A stretch of DNA of 54,622 bases, the filler included, from Stramenopiles sp. TOSAG23-6 (taxonomy: Eukaryota): NCBI GenBank assembly GCA_900128565.1. It is 3 parts of 3 records of this genome, joined end to end, with 100 filler letters (N's around TTAATTAATTAA, not from the genome) between each part and the next. Parts side by side here need not be neighbours in the genome. Positions count along the whole stretch, not along the records: positions 36,573 to 54,622 come from LT636068.1; 2 more parts are not named here. One strand, written 5' to 3'. Every line of letters begins with the position of its first letter. Position 1 is the stretch's first letter. Below the pieces are notes generated by a model that was not told the DNA's origin, ran no database searches, and saw only the letters and a list, made by a program, of their open reading frames with translations. Shown here piece after piece: positions 21,505 through 54,622 of the stretch. Position numbers and translations under genes: made by a program.

Positions 21505-21543
<39 letters not shown>

Positions 21544-22518: not shown

Positions 22519-22565
22519 GTATGTTTTATTTTTTTTCAAATTCGAATTTATTTTTTTTTTCGTAC
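22519..22565 (+). mobile_element. Introner-family copy, truncated at its CGTAC core
   Basis: AGC AT|GTATGTTTTATTTTTTTTCAAATTCGAATTTA...CGTAC, then an abrupt switch to minus-strand coding sequence. Confidence 0.8.
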
Positions 22566-31500: not shown

Positions 31501-34500
31501 TATCAGATTCAGCAACAACTGTTAATATTTGAGATATTGCCCAATTATATGTTTCAAAATTTAGCTTGCCAATTATAGGAGTGCCCATTTTGCTGCCTCC
31601 AATTATCCATTGATTCAACTGATGTGCACTAAAAGGAAGGACTTGCGGATATACTAATAATGGAAAAGTCATTTCAGAGAATGACAATTCATTTGGAACT
31701 CTAACATCTAAAGTTGTATTTGATGTATCGGTAATATCTATAGTTAATGTAGCCTGTTTTTCGCATACGAAATTTTTCTTCTCAGATGGAAGATTATACG
31801 GTCGCCACTTACCTGGATTGTCTATATGCCTTACGATTGGCGTCATTTTAGTAGTAGAATCGTATCCTGTTGAAGTACTAACATTTGGAATATCCCATTT
31901 CCATTTACAATTGTTGTTTGTTTTTGAAACCGTGCAATCAGAAGACAAATAAATACCTTCGCATTGTGTTTTTACGCAAAAACCTCCAGATCCCCATGAA
32001 CAAATACTTTGGGCTCTACATGCTGCAATATCTAATGACAAACAAGTTGAGCCGTTTTCTACACACCCAAAGGGATTCCACTGAGAAATTAAAGTTTNTG
32101 CATCATTCACAATATTTATCATACTTGTTTGAGTAGACTTTGCATTGATTCCAGTCCATATTTCTGTAGAATGCCCAGTATAAATAACTTTGAGCTTATC
32201 CAAAATATCCTGGATAAAACTGTGTTCAGCTTCAGTGTTTTCCACGAGAATTTCGCCACCATATCCTTTGCATATTTGTAGAGCTTCTGCTCGGGTTTTG
32301 ACTTCTTCAGGAGCAGCATAAAATTTATAGCAAGATCCCGACTGCCGCCAGTACATGCCATCATTGCATTCCGTGTACATATTACGAGTAAGTCTAACAA
32401 GTAGCTCAGCATTACCACCGTTTTCGAAGACTCTAGGATCTGATACTGCGCTAACTATAAATCCTGCGGTGTCATTATCAGCGGTAACATGGACCGAAAC
32501 ATATTCACTCATGCTATTAAAAAAATTTCCTGAAACATCACGAATAGTGACTATAAATGGGAGGGCGTGTCTACTTCCTTGAACAACCGAATCATCAACT
32601 TGGAGGATATTCAAAGTTTTTGGGGTGGCCCATGTTAGTGATGTAAACTCGATATACTGAACAATTTGGCCGCCATATGAGAGGTTATATTGGTCATCTC
32701 CATATGGTGTTGTAAAATCAACTCTTACAGTGATTACTTTTTCACACAAAGCTGGACTAAGAAGTTGAGTTTTACAAAGTTTACCATTTAGTGGATGGCA
32801 CTGCGTCCTCCAAGATGTATACAATGCTTTATAATGTGTTCCATTCATAATTGGCCCACTAGTACCAGTATCCAGATCTAAAATTGTACCCTCAGTAGTG
32901 TCATCACACGAATCTCCAAGTGTTTTATCACATCCTAACCACATGGGAGTAGGAATAGTATTTGTACCCTGCATAATTGCACGAAAAATTCCAGGCCAGT
33001 CGCTGGTTTTTCTAATTACTGCCAATTGGCCATTCCAGTCCTTACATTTTTTATTGGCAACATCCCAACTGAGTTTTTCAGTATGCATGAGATAGCACAG
33101 ACCATTTTCACGTGTTCCATTACAAACAGGCTGAGCAGCAAGACTGATTTTTATTTGAGATTTTGCATCGCTATTTGGTGCTTCGCCTTCTTCTAACCAA
33201 ACACCCATATTGCTCATCATAGCGGAAGTTTGATACCTTTTCTGCGTATACAAATTTACTACAGCATACACAAAAAATTTAGGAATTTCATCAGTGAGAT
33301 TATCTTTAGTGATCACTACGGAAGTAATACCATTGAAGGTAGATGCCGCAAGATGATCATTACAGGAATTATCACGACACTCACTCATGTTATTTACATA
33401 CTCTATATCTATAGCTAAATTATGGGTGTCCATATTTCCTTTGGCAAATATTCCAGCATGAATTCCAGATTTACAGATGGCAGAGTTCTGGCTGTATCCA
33501 CTTTTTGCTGTATCACCATAAATTACACCTCTACTATTTAAACCACACCATGTTTCCCAAGCGTCATTCAGCGCGGTTGTTGTAGGACATTCAACGCGAA
33601 ATGTGCCTCTGCTGAATCGCTGCATATTCAGCATTTCCTTTCCATACGTATCACATGTGATAGGAAGAACATTAGAAGGAGAAAATGGAGTCACAGCGAT
33701 TGTTGGTTTAGCAACAGAATCACCATATCCCGTACCTTGGCAAGTTAAATCATTATTTTTTTCTGCTAACGTGTAACTTGTAGCAACCGCATTGCGTGTA
33801 AACATTTTCTCTTGAATTTCTTTGGCTGTACGGGCTACATTCCAGAATCTTATTTCAGATATAAGTCCACTAAAATACTTGTTAGCAGTTGATGCATTTC
33901 GCCCAATATGTATTTTCGTATCTGTTGAACTTACAACACTTGGTGCTTCAAACGGTACCCACTCACCTGGTATACCATCTATAAATGCTGCAATGGCATG
34001 CATTGAACCAGCTTTACCAACACCGCCACCTGGTCTAATGACACCTGCAATATGATGCCACTTACCGTCTGTTACAAGTGCATTAACGCTGGCAGTGTAA
34101 GTTGTAGCTCCTACTTTCAGAGCAAATGTTGCACCTTTTGGCGGACTTTGCCAAGGATAATACTCATAAGAAGATTTACTCCATTTACGCGATGTTCCAG
34201 AAAAGCCGACCATATCGCCTCCCCATTTGGATCTCCAGTCATTTCCAACGGAGAGTGTGAAGCCGCATACCGACGATGCGATGACACCCTCGTAACAGTC
34301 CCCTATACATCTTATCCATGCTTCTACAGTAAGACCCACCGTGCTATTTTTCACGGGGCAAGGGGCAATATTAGAACTAGGTTGGACCATACAATATTCA
34401 TTTGTACCATTAAAGCCAAGAGCTTGAGTATTACTATTGACGATAGATATGTCAAATTGAGCTATTAAGTTGTACCCTCCGTCATCACCATGCGGTTGTT

Positions 34501-34957
34501 GCACACAAAAACTAGTGGTGCCGTCTGCGCGTACTTTCCCATCTAGTTTTTTAAACATGAGAAATGTATAGCGATCTTGAGATAAATTAAGTAGTGTAAT
34601 TGTAATATCCCCGGCTTTAGTTCCATCAGCTGTAACTTTTCCGTATTTCATAGTGTCACCTCCTCCATCAGGCCATATTTTCTGCAGTCCGTTAGTATAT
34701 TCACTACAATGAACTGCTGTTCGACTAGACTTTGCAAAGTATCCCATTTTAGATAGAGTAAAGTAGTAATCTTTGCTAGCTTCATCGACAGTATATTTTA
34801 ACTTTATCTGCTCACTTGGAATATATATAGTGCGTGCATCAGAAGATACTAAAGAAATGCTAGCGTCAACTGCATGAGCAAGGAAAATAAGCAGTAAACT
34901 AAAGACGACTAGAGAATTTTTCAACCAGGAATAATGCCGGCAGTAATACACTGGCAT
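22566..34957 (-). CDS. ~4000-aa cell-surface receptor/adhesin: signal peptide, LamG/pentraxin-like, LCCL-like, two C-type lectin-like, WSC-like and beta-sandwich repeats, C-terminal multipass membrane region; 3' end truncated
   Basis: Five ORFs joined in frame by four repeat copies (exons 34957-30760, 30665-27236, 27136-26219, 26120-23632, 23538-~22566). Motifs: LTVEAWI...DGKWHHIAG...ISEIRFWNVART; YSQNSAICKSGIHAG; CYLMHTEKLSWDVANKKC; YAGCW...CAALC...CYC; recurrent FxxxxWxxxQxIxVxxxxD. Confidence 0.8.
23539..23631 (-). mobile_element. Introner-family intron (93 nt, GT...AT, flanks AT/AT; 3' terminus diverged to CACAAGGC)
   Basis: Removal gives EWE|YRGDTF in frame with ORF 22526..23440; using the nearby AAG gives a frameshift and stop. 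Confidence 0.8.
26121..26218 (-). mobile_element. Introner-family intron (98 nt, GT...AT, flanks AT/AT)
   Basis: Removal gives ADD|IYRGKSG...PPMSPV in frame. Confidence 0.85.
27137..27235 (-). mobile_element. Introner-family intron (99 nt, GT...AT, flanks AT/AT), diverged copy
   Basis: Removal gives EGES|ICLAAG; the internal TACAG 22 nt upstream would frameshift. Confidence 0.8.
30666..30759 (-). mobile_element. Introner-family intron (94 nt, GT...AT, flanks AT/AT)
   Basis: Removal gives VMT|CGLLRISS...DMSSG in frame. Confidence 0.85.
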
Positions 34958-35309
34958 CCCATATGCACATGGCAACGCACTATGCTTAAATATTCTTAAA
35001 ATCATTGGATGAATAAGCACAAGTAAACTAGTGCTATTAGTATTACCCGGTGGTACGGTATACCCTCCAATTGCTATCTTTTAGTTTAGGAGTTACTCTC
35101 GGGCAGTTTTGACACGAAATCTGGGAAAATATGTAGACGTCGCGTGTCAATCAAATCACTTCAGTATCAAAAATAATTTGAGAATTTTTCTGTTGTCAGG
35201 AGAGAGAGCCTCACCAGAGAGGAAAATATTCTTGAAAGTAGCTGGAGAGAGTTAGTATATGGTACTTTAGTCCTTACAATTATAGAGTAATACATTTTTA
35301 AAGATTCAG

Positions 35310-36420
35310 ATGACGGGAGTTAATGTTGGCGACGCATCACCTAATAAACGAATGCGCACATCATACGATGGCAACTTGACACAAGGAGCATCGTCGAAAT
35401 TTTCTACCTCTAGGAGTGGAGGAACAACCCACACCAGCACCGGCTCTTCAGCACAATCTGAGATTGTGCCAAAACGTCCTGTATCTCGTTCTGAACAAGC
35501 TAAGCTTGACTTGGCAAGTGGACGTTTATTTTTTAAAGTAATTTCAAATGATAACACTGATGAGAATATGATTAATTTGGTGATATTGAAAAATATATTT
35601 TCAAAACAGTTACCAAAAATGCCACCGCAATATATTATCCGGCTAGTGTTTGATCACAGACACCAATCTATAGTTCTTTTCAAGAAATACGATAATGGAG
35701 AACCTGCAAAAGTTGTTGGAGGGATATGTTTTCGAGTGTATGAAGAGCAAAAATTTGCAGAAATCGCTTTTTGCGCAATTACCGCCTCGGAACAAGTTCA
35801 AGGGTATGGTACACTCGTTATGAATCAACTGAAAGAACACGTGAAAGTTCGTGGTTTGACCAATTTCCTTACGTATGCTGATAATTATGCCATTGGATAT
35901 TTTAAGAAGCAAGGGTTTTCAAAAAAATTGTCAATGGAAAAGTCTCGTTGGCAAGGATTCATAAAAGATTATGATGGGGGTACCTTAATGGAGTGTTTCA
36001 TACACCCGCGTATAGACTATAACAACATTGCTACTATGATTGCCCAGCAACGAAAATTTGTTTGTGATCGTATACGTGAAATATCTGGCTCAAATGTTGT
36101 ATATCGTGGATTAGGCCGTTCTTTTTATTCAAACAAAAATTGTGATTTATGTATGTTTTATTTTTTTTTTAACAAAAAAATCGAATTTATTTTTCGTACG
36201 AAATGTTGTACCTAACAAATTTAAGTTTTTTTTTTTTCAAATATTTTTCCAAAATACATATGATATACCCGGTGTAAGAGAATCTGGTTGGAGCCGTCCT
36301 CAAGTGATTGCTTTTCGTGATAAAATTAGACTTGCCACTAGTTTGCGTGGTCAATTACGTTCCATTACTAAAGATTTAAAGGAACAGAAGTGTATATGGC
36401 CATTTTTAGAACCTGTTGAT
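35310..36420 (+). CDS. GCN5: Histone acetyltransferase GCN5, partial; exons 35310-36150, 36260-36420
   Basis: LKNIFSKQLPKMP..YI.RLVFD, EIAFCAITASEQVQGYGT, FLTYADNYAIGYFKKQGF, IKDYDGGTLMEC, then DIPGV and the bromodomain start WPFLEPVD. Confidence 0.97.
36151..36259 (+). mobile_element. Introner-family intron (109 nt, GT...AT, flanks AT/AT)
   Basis: Removal gives CDL|YDIPGVRESGW; the internal AAG would frameshift (34 nt). Confidence 0.88.
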
Positions 36421-36472
36421 GTATGTTTTATTTTTTTTTTTACAAAAAAATCGAATTTATTTTTCGTACGAA
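36421..36472 (+). mobile_element. Introner-family copy, partial (runs into gap)
   Basis: GAT|GTATGTTTTA...TCGAATTTATTTTTCGTACGAA, nearly identical to the 36151 copy. Confidence 0.85.
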
Positions 36473-36572
36473 NNNNNNNNNNNNNNNNNNNNNNNNNNNN
36501 NNNNNNNNNNNNNNNNTTAATTAATTAANNNNNNNNNNNNNNNNNNNNNNNNNNNNNNNNNNNNNNNNNNNN
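36473..36572. other. Artificial contig-joining linker (Ns flanking TTAATTAATTAA)
   Basis: Same all-frame stop linker at 36517-36528. Confidence 0.9.
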
Positions 36573-36609
36573 CTAACGATTTTTTTTCAAATATTTTTCC
36601 AAAATACAT
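36573..36609 (+). mobile_element. Introner-family copy, 3' part only
   Basis: CTAACGATTTTTTTTCAAATATTTTTCCAAAATAC-AT directly after the gap. Confidence 0.8.
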
Positions 36610-37761
36610 GGTGTATCGAAAGTTACTGAGGAAAATGAGGCATTTGTTTGTTCACATGATTTATCTGAGAACAAAAAAGTCACTTCACTTTGGTCTGACT
36701 TTTGGAACAAGGTACATGTATTTTTACATCATTCATTTCAATTTTAATTTTTTTTATACCAAATTTTGTACCTAACAAATTTCAAATTTTTAAAATATGT
36801 TTTCACAATACACGTGAGAAATGTTTTACTCGTGGGCTCAGTTTTGCAAATATTACAACAATTTCTTGGTATAAATACGGTAATGTACTATGGGGCTACA
36901 ATTACTGCAGAAGCTATAGGCACAAATAATATTTTGGATCAACCAAATTCTTCAGATGTAAAAAAATTAGAAAGCGCTGTTCTATACAGTACGTTTTCAT
37001 TATGANTTNCGANTTNATTTTTTTTTCGTACGAAATTTTGTACCTAACAAATTTCGAATTAATTTTTTTTTACAATATATGTGCACTCTTGGCTTTTGGA
37101 AATTTTATTTTCTCTGGCGTAGGAATTTTTCTAGTTGAACGTTCAGGTAGACGTTATTTAACTTTGAGTAGCATTTTAGGAGTGACAGGAACTCTTTTAT
37201 TTCTCGGATTTGCATTTTCTTTTAATTTTGCCTATCCTTACAAAATTGCTTTTTTGGGATTGTATGTAGCTTTCTTTGCTTATGGAATGGGGCCCATGCC
37301 GTGGACAATCAATTCGGAGATTTTTCCTCTTGACATTCGAGGCAAGTGTAATGCATTTACAACTGGTGTGTACGTTTTATATGAATTTCTAATTTAATTT
37401 TTTTTTGTACGAAATTTCGTACCTAACAAATTAAAAAAAATTTTGAAATATTTTTTCACAATACGTGAACTGGGGTGCGAATTTAATTATATCCTTCACG
37501 TTTCTTTCTCTCGGATTTTCTGTAGCATTTTTTGTATATGCAGGATGTGGAATTTTAGGCTTTATATATTTGTATAGGTATTTACCTGAAACGAAAGGCA
37601 TCGAGTTACATGAAATATCTTTGCTCTTTGGGAAAAAAAGAGAAAAAAGTAGAAGTGATGAAATTGAAAGTGTATCAGACGCAACTGAATCTATACCAGT
37701 TGCAGAGGCTGTACCAATATCGAACGAAAGAGTGAAAACTACTAGACGTTCTTCTGTATAA
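36610..37761 (+). CDS. MFS sugar porter (myo-inositol transporter-like), C-terminal half; exons 36610-36717, 36814-36988, 37081-37369, 37467-37761
   Basis: LQILQQFLGINTVMYYGATI, LVERSGRR, GMGPMPWTINSEIFPLDIRG, VNWGAN, LPETKG. Confidence 0.92.
36718..36813 (+). mobile_element. Introner-family intron (96 nt, GT...AC, flanks AT/AC)
   Basis: Contains an in-frame stop and no AG; removal gives FWNKVH|VRNVLLVG. Confidence 0.8.
36989..37080 (+). mobile_element. Introner-family intron (92 nt, GT...AT, flanks CA/AT)
   Basis: Removal gives AVLYS-ALLAFGNF; a 2-nt-upstream register would create TAA. Confidence 0.8.
37370..37466 (+). mobile_element. Introner-family intron (97 nt, GT...GT, flanks GT/GT)
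   Basis: Removal restores TTGV|NWGAN; perfect palindrome at 37407-37422; no AG inside. Confidence 0.88.
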
Positions 37762-37859
37762 AGTCTGTCAGGTACATGTATTTTCAATTATACAGTGTTT
37801 TTTTTTCTATAAATTTAAAATTAAAACCCCAGATATAAGTTTTTTATTTATTCCAATCA

Positions 37860-38788
37860 TTACGCAACTAATTCAACTTTCACAATAGCAACCGTTAGTG
37901 AATAAACTATACCAGTAGATACTATTACTATGACGCAAATTCCAGCAGTTAATGATTTCTTTGACTTGTTTGATATTGGGATGACATCTTGTATATATTT
38001 TGGTAACATTGGTACTAATAATATTGGCACCAGAGTACACACTGATGAAATTATTGTCAAAGTAGCTAATTTGTCAAAATTTGTCAGTGTAATTCCCAAG
38101 GCTCTTGTAATCATTGAGGATATGGTACTACCAACAGCACCTGCTACATTTAAACTCATTGTGAGAAAAGCGTAGACAGATCCTTCTACCTCTTTTGGAC
38201 ATATTCGTGCTGCATAAATGAGCAGAGGCATATTAAGAAGAAATCCTATGACGTCACTGACAATTTCATCTCCAAATGCAAACCAAAAATCAGAAATTCC
38301 CCAACTTACATTTATACGATAAACGAGGACTAATTGAGATAACTGAAAACAAGCAGTAGCTACCAAAACTGTCGTGAATAAAATATGTAAGTTACTTTCC
38401 ATAAAAAAATGGTTATAAATCAGGATCGCTACTACAGAGGACACTACACCGACTGCACCAAGTAATGCATATTCTTCATTGGTGAAGCCTAAAGGACCAA
38501 GAATAAAGTTTGTAAAGGCATCACCATTACTTGGCATTATGCCATATAATAACATAAAACAAAATGGCATATAAATCTGTTTATCCTGAAGTGCTAAGAA
38601 GACTTTTTTGAACTGTTCCTTTGGATACTTTACTTCGCAACCAGCTTCGTCACGGAAAAAGAAAATTAGTGGCAGTAGAGACAACTGCGATATGCTTAAA
38701 ATAAAAAATACTTGCTGCTCTTTTAAACCAAATCGTTCAAGCATGACTCCACCTAATAATACACCGATGAGGGAACCTACGGCTCGAC
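37860..38788 (-). CDS. Folate-biopterin transporter (BT1) family, C-terminal exon only
   Basis: Multipass MFS-like ORF with RINVSWGISDFWFAFGD and MPLLIYAARICPKEVEGSVYAFL, typical of BT1. Confidence 0.85.
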
Positions 38789-38879
38789 ATGTATTTTGGA
38801 AAAATATTTCAAAAAAAAACCCGTTAGATACAAAATTTCGTACGAAAAAAAATCGAAATTGAAAAAAAATAAAACATAC
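38789..38879 (-). mobile_element. Introner-family copy joining ABCD (upstream) and BT1 (downstream) exons
   Basis: Full consensus copy with AT/AT flanks, but the upstream exon ends in phase 2 and the downstream exon needs phase 1. Confidence 0.8.
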
Positions 38880-39969
38880 ATATCACGTTCCACAACTCCT
38901 CCATTGTATGCCGCAATAGCCTCCGCGTGGTTTTGGAATCTTCCATGAGCTGCATATGTACCATGAAAAAATATTTTTTTTTTTGGTTAAAAATTTTTGT
39001 TAGGTACGGAATTGTCTACGAAAATAAAATAAATTTGAAATTCATAATAAAAACGTATAATATTTCCCACGTCGATCTGCCATGCCTCGCCACATCTTCG
39101 ACCAATTTGGTGAAAGAGAAAATGAAAGACGAAACGCAATATAAAAGTAAAGTAACGGTGATAAAGCATATGGCAAAGATGTTATTGTACTGAGCTTGTA
39201 AGTATTGTGAAACAATATTTTTTTTGGTTACAAAAAATCGTTAGGTACAAAATTCGGTATGAAAAACAATTAGGGGTAAAAAACAATTAAATGTTTACAC
39301 CGTACAGGTAAACCAAATACCAGATGTAATCGCAGCTGAAAATTTTTCTACTTCTTCAGATAAAGATTTAGAAAATCGACGGGTGTCCCTGGTAATACGT
39401 TCTTCAACATCACTGATTTTAGATTTATTGAGGTGGGAAAGTTTGTAATATGCCTGACCACTAAAATATTCTCGATGTAGATGCCTTGTCAATTTCGAAC
39501 GCCATATTAAAGTCAGCCTTTCCTTCAAGAATCGGTGAAATGCAAAAATTATCGATGAAATGAGACTCAGTATTGTTGTTTCTATAATTGTTCGCTTAAA
39601 TATTTTGAGGTCACGGTGAAAAGTAGCACTTAGAAGACGTGTCTTGATGTATACCATGCGGTTTTGATGCCAAGTGCGGATAATACTTACTGCAAATATC
39701 GCCAGTAATTCAAGTCTTCCAGAGCGAGAATCACACAAGTGACTTGACCTTGCCTTGCTGTAAAATGGCCATAACATACGGAATATTTTATACATTGGTG
39801 TCCAACCCATTTTCTTATTTTTAGGTGTTTTAGACACTTTTGAAGAGGCAGAAAATAGATTAGTAAAATGATGACGCTTATAATAGTACACTGCGAGAGC
39901 AAAAAGTGCCGTTGGTAAAACAAAGTGATGCTTTCTGTAACTAACCCGCATTTTACTTGATGCATACAT
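38880..39969 (-). CDS. Peroxisomal ABCD-type ABC transporter, N-terminal membrane domain, partial; exons 39969-39306, 39199-39059, 38955-38880
   Basis: WRSKLTRHLHREYF...YYKL...DVEERITRD, FT|YKL, and the EAA-like motif RGKY|YAAHGRFQNHAEAIAAYNG. Confidence 0.88.
38956..39058 (-). mobile_element. Introner-family intron (103 nt) with AT instead of GT at its 5' end (AT...AT, flanks TT/AT)
   Basis: Starts ATACGTTTTTATTATGAATTTC; removal restores gap-free alignment to the ABCD EAA region. Confidence 0.8.
39200..39305 (-). mobile_element. Introner-family intron (106 nt, GT...TT, flanks CT/TT)
   Basis: Removal gives GIWFT|YKLST in frame; CCTAAC and the TTTCACAATAC end are present. Confidence 0.82.
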
Positions 39970-40243
39970 AAAGAAAAATAATTAGATTACAAACCAAGAA
40001 AGTCGCGAAATGACGTGGATTGTATCATTTAGCTCTATGAATAAGAATAATATTGATATCAGCTACAGTATATAGGTCAAATAGGTCAAATAACTTACGT
40101 AGACTATCTATTATTAGAAGTATAATATAGCTAGGGTTAGGGTTTTCAAATTAACGTACAATGTTAACGTAGATACTCCAGGTCTCTAGCTAGAAGTTCC
40201 TCAATAAGATTTAGATTGAAACAATATCTTTTCATGTCCAGTC

Positions 40244-41569
40244 ATGATCCCTACAAATAGAAATCAATCTAATTCACCTGATGATAGAACAATTGAGAAT
40301 ATTCAGGCTCAAACTCAGCAGATCTTTTCTACATTTAAGAAACTCTTTCCGTCACGTCAACTCTTTGATGTGTCATACAATGTTCAACAACAACTAGTTG
40401 ACTATGATAGCGATTGTTCCCAAAAGTTCAAACCCTGCGACACCCTAGACTTTAACAATAGTCTCTCCATCAAGGCATTAACCAAAGAAGTTACATCATT
40501 GCGATCTGAAGTTGCTACTTTGAAGAGAGCTTTTAATCAAACACAAAGCAAAACCAACAATACAAAACTATCCGAGACAAGCAACACAAAACTGTCCGAG
40601 ACAAACAATACATATTTGCCCAAGTTATTAGAAACACAACTATTTTACTTCCAAAATCGTTTTGGGGATAACATAGACCTGGAAGCTGAAACAAATGAAA
40701 ATGTTAACTACATTGCAAAACAAAATGTGAAAATTTTAGCACGTCATTATATAAAACAGGTTGCTGGTATGAACGCCTCAAAAAATGCCGATGAGGAATT
40801 TAAAATTGAAAAAGAGGTTAGAGCTGAAGCTGAAGCAACTCAAAATATTGAGAATATTAAAGAACATGAAATTGAAAAAGAGATTAGAACGGAAGCTGGG
40901 GCACCTCAAAACACGGCAAATAAGATTAAAGAACAAGGAATTGAAAAACAAATTAACCAAGCTGCCAAGGAATTTTTTATTTCAATCTTGAAGAACAATC
41001 GTCAACAAGTAAATAAAAATGCAAAACTTGAGAAAAATAGAGCTACTAATTTTATAGCGACAGCCCTTGATATTGACCAAAATGAAGCTATAAACGCATT
41101 TAATGCGTATTTATATTTACAAGATGGTAGAAATGATGATAGTAAGATTAGCATTTCTGATTTTTCNAGTATTTTTTCAATACTTGCAAAGCGACTTCAT
41201 TCTCAAGAAAANACTCAATATGAAGAAATTCTAGCCATTCTTCAAGCTGTAACAGGCGAAATGACTGAAGAGGAAAATGTTCCAAATTCTGTTCTAAATG
41301 ATAAAACAATGATGAATATTGNTAATCTGCAAACAAACACAGAACAATTACATGAAAATATAACACAAGTACAAGTATCAGAATATGACTCATTCACTGG
41401 TAGTTTTGAGAATGATTCATTCGAAGAGGTTGAAAGTGATAGAAACAAAGAAGAATATGAAATATATGATACTTTTGAGAATGAGACATCGGAATCACAG
41501 ATAAATGATTCGCTCACAGAGGATTTGTATGAAGAAGACTTCACTAGTAGCTCTGATGTATCGATTTGA
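40244..41569 (+). CDS. Uncharacterised coiled-coil protein with an acidic C-terminus
   Basis: 441-aa ORF with heptad segment LTKEVTSLRSEVATLK, short internal repeats (TKLSET x2; IEKE(V/I)R(A/T)EA x2) and a D/E/S-rich tail. Confidence 0.65.
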   Translation: MIPTNRNQSNSPDDRTIENIQAQTQQIFSTFKKLFPSRQLFDVSYNVQQQLVDYDSDCSQKFKPCDTLDFNNSLSIKALTKEVTSLRSEVATLKRAFNQTQSKTNNTKLSETSNTKLSETNNTYLPKLLETQLFYFQNRFGDNIDLEAETNENVNYIAKQNVKILARHYIKQVAGMNASKNADEEFKIEKEVRAEAEATQNIENIKEHEIEKEIRTEAGAPQNTANKIKEQGIEKQINQAAKEFFISILKNNRQQVNKNAKLEKNRATNFIATALDIDQNEAINAFNAYLYLQDGRNDDSKISISDFXSIFSILAKRLHSQEXTQYEEILAILQAVTGEMTEEENVPNSVLNDKTMMNIXNLQTNTEQLHENITQVQVSEYDSFTGSFENDSFEEVESDRNKEEYEIYDTFENETSESQINDSLTEDLYEEDFTSSSDVSI

Positions 41570-41747
41570 GCTATTGAGGGTTAGTGTTAATGATAATCCA
41601 TGTAATGCGATTCGCCCCTTTTTTTAACATATAGTCAACTCAAGCTAACACATTCGGATATATGGTTGAGATTCCATTCATAAATTTATAAATTCAATTT
41701 CAAGTATATTTTTTTTCTTTCATAAATGTAACGGATAAAAATCAATA

Positions 41748-44700
41748 ATGACATCAAGTGTCCTCCTATATAGCAGGGCTATACGCGGGTATACTACAAC
41801 AACGCGTAATATTTTCTCAACATTACAATCTTCTATCTTACAAAGAAAATGGATGTCTAAGATGAAAAGGCTTCAGCCCTCGTGTCAGGTAGAACCTTTG
41901 AAACATAATCTAAAATCGCCGGCATTAACAACTCAAGTTTTCCAAAGACGGTATGCACCAAATGCTAGAGCAAATGGCGGTACTCGACCAAATACAATTA
42001 GAAAGTGGCAACAATCTCCAGGAAATTGGACCGCATGGAAAGACGTTCCACATCCAGTTGATAAGATACATCTTCCAAAGAAATCGAAAAATATTTCAAA
42101 ATATAATTCCGCGTTTTACGGTGGATTAGACAAACTAAATTCAAAGATAAAGCTTGATCAAGAAGGTTTTCTCAGATTTCCTCCAGAACCACACATAGAC
42201 CACAACAAAGAGACCGATAAAATATCTGATCGTGTCGAAAAGGCTGTGAAAGATGTNAAGGCAATGCCGCGGCGTGTACTGAAAGGCGATTGGTACTCTC
42301 AAGTTGATATTGAGACGGGTAAAGTATTTTATCTAAACAGATGGACTGGGAAAACAACTTGGGAAATGCCAGCAGTATTGGTAGAAGCAATCGAAGAAGC
42401 AAAAGTAGAAGCCCAAAAGCAATATTGTCGCAAAGAAGCTGCGGACGATGCAGCCGCGAGACGTAAAGCAATAGTTAACAATGAAATTAAATTACCAATA
42501 TCACCCTTAAAGCGACCATTTACACGTCGCTGGAAAAAAACAAACGAGCGAGGCGATGGTGTACCTGCAGAAGAATTCGAAGAAGCGAATAAAGTAGTCA
42601 ATACCAATCCTCGTGCAGGATCGATACCTGATTGGCGTCGCTTTACAAAAAAGGGNGAGCCATGGACTGTCCCAGGCACAGATAAACTTTATGAGGGGAC
42701 CACTACCAGATGGCAGGCAACATGGAAACCCCTCCGACCACGACCATTGAAGAAGGAAGGTGTAATTAAACAGGTCACTCGTCTCACAGACATGATGTCA
42801 ATAGCGAGGAATCAAGATTATGATAAACTTGTTGAGACGCTTGCGTCAGGCGACGTTTCTTCTACTATAAATGATCAATGTGAAGGTGGTATCAGTGCTC
42901 TTCACTTTGCATGTTCCGCTGCAACTCCTGGAGACCCTGTGAGTGAAGAAATTCTTAAGATATTACTCTTCTTTGGTGCGGATATTCATGCTACTACTGA
43001 CAGTAACAAAACAGCATTACATTACGCATGTGAGACTGGAAATATTGACCTTGTTAAGCGTCTCATCGAAGCTGGTGCTAGAATTGACGGTAAAACTACA
43101 TCTAATATGGGGAAAGGTGGGGAAACTGCTTTACACATGGTGTGTGAGCGTGGAGATAAACATCTCGCGAGGTTATTAATAGATCAAGGTGCTGATATTA
43201 ATACTACATCGGACTGTGGGATGACACCGCTCCATTTTGCAGTGCATAATAACGCCGTAGATATTGTGAAAATGCTCATTATTGAGGGGGCAAATTTTGA
43301 CTTAAAAGATACCACAGGAAGAACACCTTTACAAGTAGCCGCTGATAGGGAGTATATCGATATTAAGAATCACATAACGGAATTGCAGTTTCGTCGTGCA
43401 CTTAAAACATGCAAAGGTGCTTGTTCAGTCGTTACAGGAACACAGGGTTCATGTACAATTCACTGTAATTGTCAACATTATCGGCAAAGTACACGCCGAT
43501 ATTACTGTGTGTGTGGACATATTATGTTTACCCATAATAATCCTCCAAAGACAGCAGTAGTGACGCAACAAGAAAGCTTGAAAAAGGAGCTTTCGCTCCC
43601 AGAAACGCTTGCCAAGCGTAAAGCTGAAATTAGAAAACTGCCAAATCTTGAAACNGCACACTCAAAAATGCGTCGCAGGAAACGCAAAGAACGCACGAGA
43701 AACAAACTTGAGCAGAAAGAAAATAAGCACTCAGAACATAGGGAAATAGATAATACATTGGTGAGGAAACGGCTTGAAGAAATTCGAGCAGTAGAAAATG
43801 GAAAAGGCATTACTCCACCTCAGATCGANGAGGGTAAAAAAATGATACATTCCATCCGCGTTTCTCAGCCGCTAATTCCGGATGAGAGACTTGCCGAGTT
43901 AATGGGTATTGATTCAAAAGNTAAACCTGATATCAATAGTACGCAATTTCGACCTCCTACAGGTCATAAAGAACGTACTGGTAGTCGGCGAAGAAGCACA
44001 TTGGTATTGGAAACAAGAGGTGATAATAATAATACACACATAGATACGCCAATCTGTGAAAAACGTGTATCGAGCCGACATGGGTTACCTGGAAGCCGCG
44101 CTGGCTCGCGTTCTGGAAGAAGACCATTGTCTGGGAGACGGCGGCCGTTTTCTGGAAGAGGAAGGCCAATATCAGCCCGTCAGCAAATTATGGATAGTCT
44201 CTTATCCCAATTCGGGGGGGGGATTGATGAAGTCGAAGTTGATGGCGATATATTTGCAGAATTTGCAGAATTTGCGCAACAGGAGGACGATGATTCACTA
44301 GAACAGCAACAATTAATAACGCTAGGAAATTCAACACTTGGATGCAATGCAAGTAAGCAACAAAGTAGAACTGTATCGCGAAGGTCGACAATTTCAACCG
44401 ACACGTATGATTCACTTGACTCATTCGTGAGTTCGCGGAGCTCATCGCGGGGAAGAAAAAACAAAGCACCATCAAAGGGTAGTAGAAATAAAACAAAGAA
44501 GAAGCGCCCAGCATCCCGACGAACTCAAGCTCTAATGTTTCAACAACGAGCCCGGTTTACATTTTGGTCAGGTCTTGAATATACCATACATCCAGTAACA
44601 GGGAAGAAAGTTCCTATTAGCCAATCAAGCCGTGGGTGGGAAGGCGGGCATTGGGCACCAGGGCGCGAGGTTGATCGTCTTGGTGCCGATCCAGAAGAAT

Positions 44701-45125
44701 TTGAAGATCGGGAAAAACAAAGTAGATATAAATATGGTGTCACTTGGAATGGAAAGATTAGAAAATGGATGGCCCGGGTTCGTACAAAAGAAAATACAAT
44801 GAAACTTCTTGGCTATTTTAATCTCACGGAAGAGGCAGAAGCTGCTGAAACTTATGATAAGGCTGCAATAGAATTATACGGCGAATTTGCATTGACAAAT
44901 TTTCATACCCCTGATTCAAAGAAAGAGAGTCGGTTTGAGTATGGAGTAACCTGGAATGATAGAAAAAAACGGTGGATGTCACAAGTCATTACTCCTCTAA
45001 ATAAGATTCAATTAATTGGTCTCTTTGAAGAATACGATGAGTTGCGAGCCGCCAGGGCTTACGATAAGGCAGCAAAACAATTATATGGCAAAGATTACGA
45101 AAAGTTAAACTTCCGTGTATTTTAA
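41748..45125 (+). CDS. WW + ankyrin-repeat + tandem AP2 domain protein (true start may be near 41852)
   Basis: WW: DWYSQVDIETGKVFYLNRWTGKTTWEMP; 4-5 ANK repeats (TALHYAC, TALHMVC, TPLHFAV, TPLQVAA); AP2: YGVTWN...KWMARV...LGYF...AAETYDKAAIELYG...TNF, twice. Confidence 0.88.
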   Translation: MTSSVLLYSRAIRGYTTTTRNIFSTLQSSILQRKWMSKMKRLQPSCQVEPLKHNLKSPALTTQVFQRRYAPNARANGGTRPNTIRKWQQSPGNWTAWKDVPHPVDKIHLPKKSKNISKYNSAFYGGLDKLNSKIKLDQEGFLRFPPEPHIDHNKETDKISDRVEKAVKDXKAMPRRVLKGDWYSQVDIETGKVFYLNRWTGKTTWEMPAVLVEAIEEAKVEAQKQYCRKEAADDAAARRKAIVNNEIKLPISPLKRPFTRRWKKTNERGDGVPAEEFEEANKVVNTNPRAGSIPDWRRFTKKXEPWTVPGTDKLYEGTTTRWQATWKPLRPRPLKKEGVIKQVTRLTDMMSIARNQDYDKLVETLASGDVSSTINDQCEGGISALHFACSAATPGDPVSEEILKILLFFGADIHATTDSNKTALHYACETGNIDLVKRLIEAGARIDGKTTSNMGKGGETALHMVCERGDKHLARLLIDQGADINTTSDCGMTPLHFAVHNNAVDIVKMLIIEGANFDLKDTTGRTPLQVAADREYIDIKNHITELQFRRALKTCKGACSVVTGTQGSCTIHCNCQHYRQSTRRYYCVCGHIMFTHNNPPKTAVVTQQESLKKELSLPETLAKRKAEIRKLPNLEXAHSKMRRRKRKERTRNKLEQKENKHSEHREIDNTLVRKRLEEIRAVENGKGITPPQIXEGKKMIHSIRVSQPLIPDERLAELMGIDSKXKPDINSTQFRPPTGHKERTGSRRRSTLVLETRGDNNNTHIDTPICEKRVSSRHGLPGSRAGSRSGRRPLSGRRRPFSGRGRPISARQQIMDSLLSQFGGGIDEVEVDGDIFAEFAEFAQQEDDDSLEQQQLITLGNSTLGCNASKQQSRTVSRRSTISTDTYDSLDSFVSSRSSSRGRKNKAPSKGSRNKTKKKRPASRRTQALMFQQRARFTFWSGLEYTIHPVTGKKVPISQSSRGWEGGHWAPGREVDRLGADPEEFEDREKQSRYKYGVTWNGKIRKWMARVRTKENTMKLLGYFNLTEEAEAAETYDKAAIELYGEFALTNFHTPDSKKESRFEYGVTWNDRKKRWMSQVITPLNKIQLIGLFEEYDELRAARAYDKAAKQLYGKDYEKLNFRVF

Positions 45126-45279
45126 TGTCAAACTAGAAATGCTAGTTGAAATAAAGATAATGTGACTGTAGTATTTATTTCGCTTTTCCCTTTTCTCTAA
45201 ACAAAGGTATGCTAACTAAAACTAAAAAACATTTTATTAAATTTCAAAAATGCAAAATAATGAAAAATATATTTCCTCA

Positions 45280-51200: not shown

Positions 51201-53016
51201 CTGTATCTCGTAAAACATCTAGTGGAGGAAATTGTCTTCCAGAATGCCAGGGCACTGAATCAGACTGATCTTGAGCCGATCCATATGGTACATTTAGTTC
51301 AATGAAGAAAATCTCATTTGACGCGAGTTGTCCAGTTAATTGTTCAGTTGAATCGAACGCAGTGATGCGCACATTTGACTCGACCCCAACAGTAGCACTT
51401 ATAGTCCCGGCACCTTCAACAGTACATTTTGGTGGATTAACTGCGACATCCTCATCATCTAATATTGTGATTATAGCCCGTCCTTGTGGACCAATTTGTG
51501 CTAGCGAAGAATGACCTGAAGTATTACTGCTGTACAAACCAGGATCATCATGTACATTGTATAACCTGACTAGAAATCGTTCATTTCCTTCTAATTCAGA
51601 ATCGTCATTAATAGTAACACGAAATGTGAGTTCAACAACTCCCTCGGTAAAGTCAAGTATTTGTGAGCCTGTATAAAATGCAGTTGGAGTGATATCTGAA
51701 GAATTTGTAGTGATATGTTCGATAGAGTACACAACTCGTACACTTCCATAACCACCTCCACTTCGGCGAACCGTGAGGGGTATATATCCAGCAGTTTCGG
51801 ATATTTCATATGTTGGGGATGAAAATGTTATAACACCTTCATGACCACAAACCATATGTGAAATTGCACTTTCAGTACATTCCCAGAGATGATCTTCCTG
51901 GGTTCCTTGAGTACACGTCTGTGATGTAGTTTTCAAAGGGTATGTCGTGGCAGCTACACCTCGTTTTGGAACACGATATGTTTCAGCTCCAGCAAATGCA
52001 TCAGTATGTTTTGATCCAAATGGTAGAGTTATCGGTAATTCCCTCACTACTTCATCAAATGGAAGTGGAAAATCTCTCTGGCGATATCCCGAACGATGTA
52101 TTGATCTTAATATGGGGTCTGCACACTCAAGACAGCCAATATGATCACATCTAAGACAACGTGGATCGAATGTTGAGCATGGTAGACAGTCACCAGCATC
52201 TGGTGATGTTGGTGGTGCTACATAATGACCTTCAATACACTCAGTGCAAACAGAACTAGTGCATTCAGTACATAAAGTGCCATGAGTAGAGCATATATGT
52301 TTACTACAATTTACATCAACGAAACCTTCATAGCACGAACATAACCCGGTAGTGTAGTCACAATCACCCGCACCGGAGCAGTCTAATGGGCAACTCTTTT
52401 TAGGATGACATGTCACCTTATTCGTTGTGTCACGGTAGTAATGAGGAGCGCATTCTCCACAACTATTTCCTTGGTACCCGGTTTCACAGAAGCATGACCC
52501 TGAACGTCTGTCACAATAGCCAAATTCTTTGCCACGACAAAAATATTGACCATTAACGGGACCAACCATTTCAGGGCAATTTTGACGTGGATGTACTCCA
52601 TCATATAATACAGATTTTGTGACAGAGTTACCAGCTCCTTGGTTAACTCGAGTACGTTGAGGATTCGTTGTCACGCCGTATTGACCTACAAAACCTGGTG
52701 CATACGCTTCAAATTTTGGATCATTGGATTGATTATTCGCATCGGTATATCGGTATGCTGTTGTTACACCAAAAATTTCAAATACAATAATCAATATAAG
52801 TATGTTCTGACAGACTGAGATGTATCTAGGGAAAAAAGCAGTTGAGTGAAATTTCCTGTCCCTATTATTATTGGAATGACTACACTTACTTGTACTTGTA
52901 GCAAATACGATTCTACTTTTACCTACATGAGATAACTCTTGATTCATGTTGTTTACTAATATAATACTAGAATATATAAAAGAAAAAATATGTTCAAGTC
53001 TGAATCTCTTGACCAA
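45280..53016 (-). CDS. ~2500-aa secreted/surface protein: EGF-like repeats, Calx-beta, many filamin-type Ig repeats and three PA14 domains; no introns seen
   Basis: CSGAGDCDYTTGLCSC; FSSPTYEISETAG...RVTINDDSELEGNERF; repeated S-A-G-G...F...RD..GN...GSPF; GLRGEYF...FVSARWTG-type PA14 x3. The start is probably downstream of 53016. Confidence 0.85.
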   Translation of the reverse strand: MVKRFRLEHIFSFIYSSIILVNNMNQELSHVGKSRIVFATSTSKCSHSNNNRDRKFHSTAFFPRYISVCQNILILIIVFEIFGVTTAYRYTDANNQSNDPKFEAYAPGFVGQYGVTTNPQRTRVNQGAGNSVTKSVLYDGVHPRQNCPEMVGPVNGQYFCRGKEFGYCDRRSGSCFCETGYQGNSCGECAPHYYRDTTNKVTCHPKKSCPLDCSGAGDCDYTTGLCSCYEGFVDVNCSKHICSTHGTLCTECTSSVCTECIEGHYVAPPTSPDAGDCLPCSTFDPRCLRCDHIGCLECADPILRSIHRSGYRQRDFPLPFDEVVRELPITLPFGSKHTDAFAGAETYRVPKRGVAATTYPLKTTSQTCTQGTQEDHLWECTESAISHMVCGHEGVITFSSPTYEISETAGYIPLTVRRSGGGYGSVRVVYSIEHITTNSSDITPTAFYTGSQILDFTEGVVELTFRVTINDDSELEGNERFLVRLYNVHDDPGLYSSNTSGHSSLAQIGPQGRAIITILDDEDVAVNPPKCTVEGAGTISATVGVESNVRITAFDSTEQLTGQLASNEIFFIELNVPYGSAQDQSDSVPWHSGRQFPPLDVLRDTVTGNPTFPCVFDSAGQYDCKYLPKRAGNYDLSVMLAKKDGLRGEYFDNPWLEGPAVVDRIDRTLNFNWTGDRITPNSKDFVSARWTGKLYVPLVTIEDYHFYVTADDNVRVWLDHILLIDMWDTPCTTTIERVVAMEFGFHDFRVEYRDITGDAFLRIELSSSSLARSVLQPYRLWSLHSLGSGVRVGNVAGASPYQITIAPGPLVGPSSRAIGGSLSEQYAGNAHEFVILSNDIYGNHRGMLGASDSFSIIAVLVGEGGGGDGSQFVKGSYKFLTTDPPEDSVGAKGDHVASITIPISGKYDLYVSAADPSGRLKGIEGSPFELRVWPGVTRGATSNAWGVGLSQATAGITATFTVRLRDHVHNRKFEGNERVRVFAYHVGSGVYHRGWVYDQGNGKYDCAYVAEKRGVYSLHVVVDVPPGTASSFAARKVAGNIGSYENYSPEHIAQSPYTVNVAPNVLHEKSTATGVGISTATSGVVQTFEVQGRDLHSNAILEPSNSDVVTVEIAKDDATLVTGNVVYTTDGKYTCSYDAPSSGKRLLYVKTNDVNIVGSPFTVDVSDGVPVSSTSTASGIGLSDAQAGFEQTFLVQLRDTWGNKRSSSTDTIGITLTHLGNARWKAGTVDSSNGGIVTGNAEYLQDGLWMIKYTATRAGLHTIDVTVTISDVPVGVSGSPFSLTVRPAPTNPGKSEPTGIGLFHGVAGVASPVKVQAVDKFGNTQITSGDQFFVRCHAGPDEGGECSGAGAGALLEKQCGICVAQSSSEVKRQSTAKAQDSLVYYAATPPGKSPKAGGSGYCSSEDACRAVKNRTTATACENVPGCVWEAATDEAGRPFESGSGGYPFSNEVCRAALSETECNAASGVWHSVGNEPPEGQTQVGVASTGGIWNAASKDVQQHYETIVQSGAFAYGPSIKTECEVLGLCTDPVDILGVTPQNDCNGHGAVWTSNKWVPGTWTVATPYQTNGNSGNSPRIARPDAPSNTEVDPTDGYSPSKGISEGWPMRGYAGRTPAEEDGLVYTLGSQLSMYARASQTSRSCVDTNLGSCDVPEILLSNLGDSTGKYEGTWTPQVQGDYECDVVMASPGGLYGEYFDVEDLGAPKPGISKNGESRLSYNDSGNPTSLRNPNSSQSGLVHSQIDPVIDFAWEKSPHFDILPGLENIIGWDRFSIRWSGFIQPLFSELYTLTVHIGSDDGIRIFIDDLLVIDSWSKNSLWSNTNNEERIQGTGSSVMKSSTNVLLTAAKLHKIIIEYRDLTGIAAVKLQWRSASQQVQVVPASQLYSEAPLLGSPFRPTIESAQTDPRKSFAKGSGIVVATAAIETKFVIDARDAFGNHRHIGADKWTVVATLTGGGRPDLIANTCKGTSKATCDKGYDSHQCTLDTSCEWKSDTLVDGSRPCVGAECCSAILCSADIFQNNKNRCNSAPGCAFTDAGPYGNNSTWKRWDSRFGGGGSGDGADENASFIASVEDTNDGFYTVRYTPKLSGLYQLHITMDDSSISATSKTILAAQGKFAIDEFARSGTRHIQGSPFLLVVSDGQARGSLSTASGDGISRAMTGVEYTFTVTLRDVNGNERLVEDQLTVLLKHSTGWQQVKGVTSYLGAGKYNVAYTAQKSGVYSMNISVATENXEENISKSPFSLYVEPNAASGSGSTVTGGALTTVQAGTLASFKIYAGDANSRFPSTLPHGEQENSTNAVNQRTSEQEKDVFAVRISGVHVYNLWAKPSPIIDPNGQSCSDGHCRPGGGEYIVQWNVRVPNESSPNSSSNPHLISITLARDPGLLAEYFSNAFFQGSPTKISLEPNIDHDWQFSPLLYADGSGLLNYVSIRWKGLVRAEYDADYIFSATIREGDHMRVRIDSVWVLNNWPVAMIDDGSNGGSLDDNISSNGTLEPLVEISGTAIHLNEGALYDIYVEYRDNRGAATAQLSWMAGTAKKNRDSLSGIVLPKEIVPNRLLWSREENIVGSPFTTSVTPAST

Positions 53017-53187
53017 AATTGGTCAGAAATGACATAAAACCTATAATAATAAACTGGTGGAATGATTGAAGATGAGTAATTCCGTTGAAACAGTTTATTT
53101 TGACGGTTTCATTAATCAAAAGATGGTACCCGGTTCCCCTTTTTACAATAATTTTTACTAAATCGTGGGTGAATTTTACATTTTGCA

Positions 53188-54559
53188 TTACNAATTCACC
53201 CCCTTTTTTTCACGCATCCATGATGGAACATACCCTTCCGTAATTTTATTAGTTTTATCCAAAGTTTCTTGTGGCGTTGTTGTATTCTGCTGATATTTGT
53301 TCATTTTTTGTTGTTTTTTAATAAATTGTTGTTTTTCATATTCATCAAGTCTTCGTTCATTTTCCATTTCTTTTCGCTGTAGCATTTGTTCCTTTCCTTG
53401 ACGACTTGAAGGATCCCACGGGCGATACTCAATTTGTTTTTGATTCTGTTGTTTTTGTTGTTTTTGTTGGTTTTGAAGGTCTGGGGGTATTGGCTGGTGC
53501 AACTGTTGTGGAATTGGCTGACTTGGTGGAATTCTATTGTGTTGCTGAACTTGGTGAATCTTATTATTTTGCTTTATACCAAAAAACGATTTATTCGTTT
53601 TTTTAGATTTTGTACCAAACTTATAATTCACATGTGGTTTCCTTCTTCGCCAACCAGGTTGACGGTCATAAATTTGACCAACACCAAATCCAGGAAATAA
53701 ATCAACTGTTTTTTGTTGGTGTTTTTTGGGAACATTATTCTTTTCTTCTAAATAAGTACCTTCCAAGTCATTATCATTTATATCATTAGGATCTACTCGT
53801 ACAATGCCAGCTGCTGCTTCAACCGTATCTTGATTTTGGCTGACAAAATCAATAGCAGAGGATCGGTCTACAAATGTTCTTGGAATATCGCCTCGTTCTT
53901 TTGCTTGTTTTGTAAGAGCAGGAATAGTATAAATAGTAGTTGTTTCACCATCATCCATTTTATACATTTGCATTGCATCTTTACGTACAAAAAACGTAGG
54001 ATTGAACTCTGCGTCAAGTGCAACTAATTGCTTTTTCATTTGTGAATTTCTGCCTCGTATTGCACCATAATTCTTATTTTTCAGATGAGGAATTCCAACT
54101 CTACCGCTCATATCTGACATCTTATCCATGATTGTAATATCAGTATGATGTATTGCTAGAATTTCGAATAAATATGCATCACTATGACAAATCAATGCAT
54201 CAGGGTAAATATCATCGATATCATCTACACCATTGCCGAAAGGGTTTCCCATTTTTAATGTAAGCTTTCGTGACATTAGAAATGCGAGCGTCGTAAAGAG
54301 TGTTGCAAACACAGGGACTATCTGAAAAGATGAACCTGGAACATAACAATGAAACGCATAACTGAATGGACACAATAAAATTGCCAAATCTATTAGAAAT
54401 AGATGAAAAATACCAAAACCATCTGGCTGTATTTGATAAGTCCAATATACTGTGTAGAATATTTTTGTTGTAAAAAAAAATTATGAGGTGCAAAAATTAC
54501 CATGAAAAAAAACAATTTGAAATTAATGATGAAAACATACATGGTCGTGTAGTTCATGC
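53188..54559 (-). CDS. Bestrophin-like membrane protein, C-terminal part; exons 54559-54541 (19 nt), 54444-53188
   Basis: Two hydrophobic helices followed by KMGNPFGNGVDDID (bestrophin NPFG..DD motif) and a long Q-rich tail. Confidence 0.6.
54445..54540 (-). mobile_element. Introner-family intron (96 nt, GT...AT, flanks AT/AT), diverged copy
   Basis: GTATGTTTTCATCATTAATTTC start, branch motif decayed to CCTCAT; removal gives HELHDH|WTYQIQP. Confidence 0.7.
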
Positions 54560-54622
54560 ATGTATTTTGGAAAAATATTTCAAAAAAACCCGTTAGGTAC
54601 AAAATTTCGTACGAAAAAAAAA
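54560..54622 (-). mobile_element. Introner-family copy, 3' part (5' end beyond window end)
   Basis: CGTACGAAATTTTGTACCTAACGGG...AAATATTTTTCCAAAATAC-AT. Confidence 0.85.

Follow-up and report, generated by a model that had tools for sequence, protein, structure and literature searches.

Almost every known spliceosomal intron ends in AG, a rare compensated class having AC instead, and no position in splicing varies less than the first base of the intron. Introners resembling miniature inverted-repeat transposable elements (MITEs) were reportedly described by Huff et al. in 2016 in Micromonas pusilla and Aureococcus anophagefferens, and introners occur in many aquatic eukaryotes (Gozashti et al. 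2022/2025; passages of PMC12130899). Introners are presented, in passages of PMC11282704, as intron-generating, MITE-like DNA transposons with inverted termini and target duplications, and non-canonical ends of transposon-derived introns are documented, in parts of PMC11282704 and PMC7789003, for Fritillaria borealis, Amoebophrya, dinoflagellates and euglenids. In the passages of PMC7789003 that concern them, the Amoebophrya introners have no fixed terminal dinucleotides, and they are given inverted repeats of 8-20 nucleotides (nt), direct repeats of 3-5 nt and no conserved 5' motif, while U1 was not found (excerpts of PMC7789003). Fritillaria borealis has species-specific MITE-derived introns that are not of the GT-AG type and are probably handled by an adapted major spliceosome (Henriet et al. 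2019, in the summary given in part of PMC11282704). In the nonconventional introns of euglenids, positions +4 to +6 (CAG) pair with positions -8 to -6 (CTG), there is no pyrimidine tract and circles are formed (excerpts of PMC11282704). A recent introner survey kept families with unfamiliar splice sites only when they had transcript support (excerpt of PMC12130899). Here we describe an introner family found in a stretch of DNA from the uncultured marine protist Stramenopiles sp. TOSAG23-6 (GenBank assembly GCA_900128565.1), and in particular the copy at 38956..39058 on the minus strand, within an ABCD gene (the 39058 copy), which begins and ends with AT.

The window, that is, the whole stretch of DNA analysed, is 54,622 nt long and is made of three parts from three records, separated by fillers of 100 N and not necessarily neighbours in the genome; window positions 36,573 to 54,622 come from record LT636068.1. 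The sequence is AT-rich, with a GC content of 0.29-0.45 per 2 kilobases (kb) of window and a host GC of 36%, and the assembly is a draft, 420 N being counted in the window.

A family profile was built from 14 hand-delimited copies of the repeat and was used in an nhmmer search of the 54.6-kb window. This gave 22 matches at E<=0.01; one round of iteration raised the number to 25 at E<=0.1, which corresponds to about one copy per 2.5 kb, each about 90-110 nt long. Read on the sense strand, the layout is a flanking dinucleotide, GTAYGTTTT, an AT-rich body, a T-rich tail ending in ...AATAC and a second flanking dinucleotide. The GTAYGT at its 5' end is a yeast-like splice motif. The AT-rich body holds a small palindrome whose end is the core GTACCTAAC, found 22 times in the window with at most one mismatch against 6.7 occurrences expected. 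In 15 of 15 copies, the motif CTAAY was located 33-46 nt upstream of the 3' end. The termini form a short inverted repeat of about 6 nt, 5' ATGTAT and 3' ATACAT, which is degraded in the 39058 copy. The genic copies examined were all in sense with the ORF (open reading frame) of their host. Hosts include the ABCD gene, an MFS transporter, GCN5 and giant ORFs and, by motif reading only, a transportin-like gene and a cation-chloride-cotransporter-like gene. These elements are MITE-like introners that invaded coding exons, always in sense orientation. The sole non-genic match was an internal, core-only fragment lacking both ends (17198-17240), in an intergenic spacer, and a micro-exon of about 17-21 nt lies between two copies at 54541-54561 (minus strand). 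Neither the core nor the 3' consensus of the family had any match in viral contigs or in prokaryote genome contigs.

The ends of the introners were counted on the copies of the window only (22 5' ends and 19 3' ends; two of the 5' ends border an N run and are possibly one copy counted twice). A count of the base at +1, which the earlier note had suggested making across the genome, gave within the window G at 21 of 22 5' ends and A at one, that of the 39058 copy. The T at +2 and the A at +3 were found in 22/22 and the G at +5 in 21/22. The 5' flank was AT in 16 of the 22 ends; the 3' dinucleotide was AT in 16 of 19 ends, with GT, AC and TT once each, and AG was never found at the required cut. 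Among the 17 copies with both ends, the flank pairs were AT/AT in 12, GT/GT in one and unequal in four (AT/AC, TT/AT, CT/TT and CA/AT). In 5 of 15 copies, an AG follows the branch-like motif before the required 3' cut is reached and must be skipped.

The piece removed with each copy was determined from reading frames. For 14 copies we counted the flank bases that need to be retained for both ORFs to be in register, the chance expectation being one in three per copy. All 10 copies with long ORFs on both sides (84-2875 codons) needed exactly one flanking dinucleotide to be kept. This heuristic left the other four copies, which have short exons, ambiguous, and they were judged by other means: copies 39305-39202 and 39058-38958 fit the same removal rule by homology, copy 36718-36811 fits it by its unique open product, and copy 38879-38791 breaks it in the ABCD frame. 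Two copies beyond the 14, at 36989-37078 and 22307-22453, also fit the rule.

Identical flanks leave the cut ambiguous, the same removal being readable as GT...AT, TG...CA or AT...AC. Unequal flanks that change the product were found in two copies, at 36989 (CA/AT) and 39058 (TT/AT), which makes the 39058 copy one of only two in the window that fix the cutting register. Both are open only if the cut precedes element base 1 and follows the 3' dinucleotide, the other register creating a TAA; for the 39058 copy, this in-frame TAA appears when the 3' AT is retained in place of the 5' TT. Comparison of the two registers across the family showed that GT...AT is the better conserved (21/22 and 16/19, as opposed to 16/22 and 14/18 for AT...AC). 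From the two copies with unequal flanks we infer that the cut falls just before element base 1 and two bases past the last base; this register and the conservation of the ends therefore make the introns of the family GT...(C)AT. The missing AG is thus the norm of the family and no quirk of the 39058 copy. The earlier note had described this copy as lacking both canonical dinucleotides, which is correct as an observation, but only the 5' end is special, AT being the 3' dinucleotide in most of the family. We further infer that a typical member is a conventional U2-type intron except for the change of its final G to T, the AGs of its tail being ignored. These introns are clearly not defined by their terminal dinucleotides, the removed piece being set by the element itself.

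The features of the 39058 copy and of the ABCD exons are as follows, where P0001 is a 1427-residue ABCD homolog.

39306..39969, minus strand: ABCD exon 1, first ATG at about 39969; Pfam ABC_membrane_2 positions 14-151 of 269, E 2.5e-28
39200..39305, minus strand: ABCD intron 1, the upstream introner copy; GT...TT, flanks CT and TT
39059..39199, minus strand: ABCD exon 2; tblastn match with P0001 residues 254-303, 84% identity
39059..39060, minus strand: 5' flanking dinucleotide TT, exonic, unlike the 3' AT
38956..39058, minus strand: the intron as it needs to be removed, 103 nt, AT...AT; starts with ATACGT and ends with GGTACAT
38958..39058, minus strand: the element proper, 101 nt; nhmmer model positions 2-97 of 97, E 2.6e-13
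39058, minus strand: A at intron position +1, where the other 21 of the 22 family 5' ends have G
38999..39007, minus strand: branch-point-like motif GTACCTAAC; base 39000, 44 nt upstream of the 3' end, is the presumed branch A
38956..38957, minus strand: AT dinucleotide on the 3' flank, the final two bases of the intron in the open-frame register
38880..38955, minus strand: ABCD exon 3, the last ABCD exon present; ABC_membrane_2 positions 199-221 of 269

The minus-strand read agreed with the 5' end ATACG and with the 3' end GGTAC followed by AT that had been reported before, base 39058 being an A. The nhmmer score of 38958..39058 was 45.6 bits, as compared with 31-51 bits for the other full-length copies; it is a full-length member of the family, somewhat diverged and far beyond a chance match. 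It retains TACGT at +2 to +6 and, 44 nt upstream of the 3' end, the CTAAC motif; no AG occurs in it from the branch motif up to 38951. Its sole peculiarity is the A at +1, together with the unequal flanks that help to fix the register. Owing to repeated letters, several equivalent cuts exist, and an identical product is obtained from cuts at 39059..38957 (TA..CA), 39057..38955 (TA..TA) and 39056..38954 (AC..AT). When the copy is retained, translation meets a stop five codons into the intron (ORF 39042..39227).

The tblastn comparison showed that P0001 is collinear with the window in three pieces: residues 6-254 correspond to 39957-39307, residues 254-303 to 39203-39054 (42 of 50 identical) and residues 302-327 to 38956-38879 (16 of 26 identical, 62%). 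The reading frame stays open through all three ABCD exons, about 327 codons in total, which are conserved at 54-84% identity to P0001. A search of longer proteins with exon 1 returned 16 matches, the best at 54-62% identity, with full-size ABCD proteins of about 1300-1430 residues of which the named ones are from labyrinthulomycete stramenopiles; a search of proteins of near length returned five, at 56-65%, and neither protein search contained an ABCD protein of the same species. Removal of 39058..38956 gave the peptide quoted in the earlier note, which aligned without gaps with P0001 and with 11 of 11 homologs (MAFFT), and removal of these 103 nt alone reproduced the spacing from PNWSK to H-x-R, where none of the 11 homologs has an indel. 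For the 39305 copy, removal of the element and one flank restored a junction that is conserved in homologs. Among metagenome contigs, exon 1 matched five related loci, all distant (49-62% identity) and none with an introner copy, and four of the four longer metagenomic relatives encode the protein uninterrupted across both intron positions. The two ABCD introns were therefore inserted into conserved coding sequence in a lineage-specific manner.

We consider it an even call that the 39058 copy is still excised, at element-defined positions, by a spliceosome with relaxed needs at the terminal bases. It would be removed from the ABCD pre-mRNA by the same machinery and at the same element-defined positions as the rest of the family, recognition being through the retained TACGT at +2 to +6, the CTAAC motif and the CAT 3' end. 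The A at +1 would be tolerated, possibly at lower efficiency, and should the first base of the intron touch the last one, as happens in other spliceosomes, the G-U of the family would become A-U in this copy. A broader proposal, which we put forward tentatively, is that both cuts are measured from internal signals (the GTAYGT-type start, CTAAC and the CAT tail), with GT...AT as the norm, AGs bypassed and the first G replaceable. A need for the first and last bases to pair would fit this proposal, the pair being G-U in most copies, G-C in one copy and A-U in the 39058 copy. Recognition by internal motifs, as suggested earlier, agrees with the presence of TACGT and CTAAC and with a family whose cuts are set by the element and whose 3' ends lack AG.

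Enumeration of end pairs around the 39058 copy gave three other cuts that are in frame and stop-free: an AT-AC cut at 39063..38958 (106 nt), an AT-AG cut at 39058..38950 (109 nt) and a GT-AG cut at 39070..38950 (121 nt), the products of which are shorter by one, two and six residues, respectively. Splicing of the copy at one of these sites, with a slightly shorter protein, is unlikely in our view. AT-AC and GT-AG are end pairs accepted by known spliceosomes, and the acceptor at 38950 is the first AG past the branch motif. However, each of these cuts loses residues from a stretch that is free of indels in 11 of 11 homologs, the sequence around the donors at 39063 and 39070 is unlike the 5' motif of the family, and the other members pass over AGs, their ends being set by the element.

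The 39058 copy resembles AT-AC introns in that it starts with AT and has an AC two bases before the required 3' cut. A U12-type donor ATATCCTT was not found, the donor of this copy being ATACGTTTTT, which confirms in the sequence the earlier statement that an ATATCC donor is absent. The U12 branch motif usually lies about 10-20 nt from the 3' end of the intron; no branch motif of the type TCCTTAAC lies within that distance in the copy, where 44 nt separate the A of CCTAAC from the 3' end, the family range being 33-46 nt in 15 of 15 copies. A U2-type AT-AC intron did not agree with the sequence either, the cut at the element end being out of frame and an in-frame pair being available only through the donor at 39063, with the loss of one residue. 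The earlier claim that an AT-AC cut shifts the frame thus holds for 39058..38958 (101 nt) but not for 39063..38958.

Several observations weigh against excision of the 39058 copy. G is kept at +1 in 21 of 22 ends, and an A at this position may be deleterious. To our knowledge, no type of spliceosome accepts U as the last intron base, and splicing of any member of the family is deduced from reading frames and homology. The minimum-energy fold of the 39058 copy has no terminal stem, and the same is true of its ABCD neighbour. The ABCD gene stops one exon past the copy and no ATPase domain follows; there are at least three aberrant joins at introner copies in this draft assembly, and the ABCD fragment may be a young pseudogene left by a real rearrangement. 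Among the sequencing runs described below, no contig shown bridges 39059/38955 in four runs, the contigs breaking at the repeat, and no locus-specific contig of an independent DNA run among those listed reaches base 39058. A 191-nt contig of an RNA library, covering 39116-39307, carries the neighbouring copy (39200-39305) unspliced; it may represent DNA carry-over, pre-mRNA or poor splicing of this GT...TT copy.

It is possible, although we consider it doubtful, that the 39058 copy stays in the transcript, the change of G to A at +1 being disabling; it would then be a loss-of-function allele of the sequenced cell or population, part of a young ABCD pseudogene fragment that arose by a real rearrangement at the next introner or, least likely of these, an erroneous base in a draft assembly of the single-cell type. 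The G at +1 in the other 21 of 22 5' ends indicates constraint on this position. The loss of the terminal stem in this copy and the end of ABCD at the next introner copy, followed by an out-of-frame C-terminal part of BT1, point the same way, as do the 420 N of the window, the other aberrant joins at introner copies and the lack of a locus-specific independent DNA contig over 39058 among those listed. On the other side, some 327 codons in three ABCD exons remain open and conserved, an error of the consensus that hits precisely +1 is rare a priori, and the joins look like a recurrent assembly artefact, two of the three being tied to N runs or to a truncated copy. The statement in the earlier note that even the G at +1 may be dispensable went too far as worded, one 5' end of 22 in a draft having an A and 21 keeping the G. 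Dispensability of this G is plausible but unproven in a draft that contains chimeric joins at introner copies.

The region downstream of the ABCD exons contains the following features.

38789..38879, minus strand: downstream introner copy, at the ABCD end and the BT1 start; chimeric join
37863..38788, minus strand: C-terminal part of BT1 (folate-biopterin transporter family); PF03092, E 8.8e-44, positions 132-429 of 432

Under the family rule at the 38879 copy, the ABCD frame does not run on into the BT1 frame. The exon pair around the 39058 copy is intact, as had been claimed, but the gene is cut off one exon further on, at this next introner copy. Removal of the 39058 copy as a compensated AT-AC intron (39058..38958) would shift the frame and make a real chimeric ABCD-BT1 gene, which we regard as very improbable. 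An initial A and a final C make up the classical compensating pair, and the shifted frame has no stop in exon 3 and, with the next copy removed by the family rule, continues into the BT1 frame. Against this reading, the chance of such a coincidence of frames is estimated at roughly 5-10%, exon 3 is conserved in the ABCD frame (62% to P0001), both partners are domain fragments (ABCD to position 221 of 269, BT1 from position 132 of 432), and joins at introner copies recur as assembly artefacts.

Other joins of this kind were observed in the window. At 36421-36607, two runs of 44 N lie where the beginning of a GCN5 bromodomain is joined to the middle part of an MFS transporter; at 22519-22565, the 5' half of an introner copy adjoins the antisense of another gene; and at 18395-18731, duplicated introner 5' halves stand on both sides of a run of 227 N. 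The simplest reading of these joins is repeat-induced misassembly, and gene models in this assembly are untrustworthy across introner copies.

Parts of 35200-45100 were contained in 11 public sequencing runs, four of which were RNA (word shares of 0.18, 0.14, 0.06 and 0.05). The N-free segment 37017-41166 was compared with one DNA run and three RNA runs, all as assembled Logan contigs. None of these runs gave any depth over ABCD exon 1. No differing letter was recorded at 39058, where the contigs showed no locus-specific cover, and the contigs of these runs weigh neither for nor against splicing. A two-anchor pattern for the spliced or empty-site form of the 39058 junction had no match in metagenome contigs. 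In a seawater metagenome of 2024, the summed contig depth, which is not a copy number, was 63,315 over introner sequence and about 4-6 in the unique flanks, and at 37017-37155 and 38685-38962 the introner depth was about 10^3-10^4 times that of the unique flanks. This depth hints at thousands of introner copies, possibly across several organisms. DNA and RNA contigs also join the 3' end of one element straight to the 5' start of another (37369/37464 and 38881/38956-38964), which suggests tandem or nested insertions elsewhere in the genome. A go-back joint in RNA (37464>37369) was considered as an intron circle and was dropped, such joints being shared by DNA contigs (38881>38956 and 38881>38964); the joint needs no circle because tandem copies account for it.

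Excision without a spliceosome, in which an RNA structure formed by the inverted repeats guides an endonuclease and a ligase, a route proposed for the nonconventional introns of euglenids and the introners of Amoebophrya, or in which DNA is excised in the manner of the internal eliminated sequences of ciliates and one dinucleotide is left, appears quite improbable to us. The terminal ATGTAT/ATACAT pairing closed the minimum-energy fold in five of the seven other copies folded, direct dinucleotide repeats are present with one copy kept, the end dinucleotides vary, and the two cuts would be offset by 2 nt across the putative stem. Yet the fold energies were no different from those of shuffled sequences (z from +0.2 to -1.8), and the 39058 copy and its neighbour have no stem although they lie in intact exons. 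The strict sense orientation of the genic copies is not predicted by a mechanism acting on DNA or on a symmetric stem, GTAYGT and CTAAC are kept at the distances expected for U2-type introns, and metagenomic DNA contains the elements at very great depth. The different excision mechanism raised in the earlier note is thus not needed, and the sense orientation and the canonical-looking 5' and branch motifs argue against it.

Three very long coding regions on the minus strand, at 22529-35080, 5509-15522 and 45283-54480, are broken up only by introner copies, their ORF blocks comprising about 4155, about 3325 and more than 3000 codons, respectively. No conventional GT-AG intron was demonstrable anywhere in the window. 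A segment of 192 nt between two long ORFs, at 53000-53191 (minus strand), has the form GTAATG...TTCAG and is in frame across an N at 53192; no Pfam domain lies across it, and it could be a conventional GT-AG intron (53191..53000) or merely an intergenic spacer. The introner family is apparently the sole source of introns in these 54 kb of genome. An Rfam scan of the window gave no match, hence no small nuclear RNA gene was there to inspect. Elsewhere, a single ORF of 1128 codons at 41739-45125 (plus strand) encodes, from its translation read by eye, a WW-like region, ankyrin repeats and two C-terminal AP2/ERF-like repeats, and two coding low-complexity arrays were observed, one with a 12-nt period and an Arg/Gly-rich reading at 4894-5287 (plus strand), the other made of His-Gly/His-Ser repeats at 21345-21518.

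The TOSAG23-6 family is a new variant of transposon-derived non-canonical introns. It would add to the examples given by Fritillaria, Amoebophrya and the euglenids, where transposon invasion went along with relaxed or altered splice-site rules, and if the 39058 copy is spliced, even the G at +1 is not required. Standard gene finders that expect GT-AG will mis-annotate most genes of such organisms. We found no report in the literature that pairs GT-AT ends with introners, and no mention of introners was found in the listed papers on marine heterotrophic stramenopiles.

Comparison with known introners showed that the family shares with them elements of about 100 nt that are non-autonomous, many similar copies serving as introns of unrelated genes, terminal inverted repeats, short target-site duplications and sense orientation, and that, as in known introners, one splice site is borne by the element, which is excised together with one copy of the duplication. 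Known introners, however, end with GT/GC...AG, the AG often coming from the duplication, whereas the TOSAG23-6 family ends mostly in AT and skips AGs. Its duplication is only 2 nt, and the 39058 copy further differs from known introners in having no G at +1. Unlike the internal eliminated sequences of ciliates, which are bounded by TA, neutral in orientation and absent from somatic DNA, the copies have AT flanks, a strict sense orientation and a high metagenomic depth.

Like the introners of Amoebophrya A25/A120, the family belongs to a marine protist and consists of repeated introns that lack fixed terminal dinucleotides and have inverted repeats at their ends and direct repeats at their boundaries (parts of PMC7789003). 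However, its inverted repeat is about 6 nt and its direct repeat 2 nt, GTAYGT and CTAAC are strongly conserved, and the 39058 copy has neither repeat intact (flanks TT/AT, no terminal stem in its fold). With the euglenid introns it shares variable borders, duplication-like repeats at the junctions, pairing of the ends and a likely MITE origin, but its positions +4 to +6 are YGT and its tail is T-rich; the euglenid motifs are absent and the family looks spliceosomal. The introns of Fritillaria borealis are also derived from transposons, and ends such as ...AT and ...AC occur in both, but the commonest pairs in Fritillaria borealis are AG-AC and AG-AT, in which the 5' end is deviant, whereas the 5' end of the TOSAG23-6 family is canonical in 21 of 22 cases and its last base is the deviant one. 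What distinguishes the family from those of Fritillaria, Amoebophrya and the euglenids is that it is canonical everywhere but at the last base.

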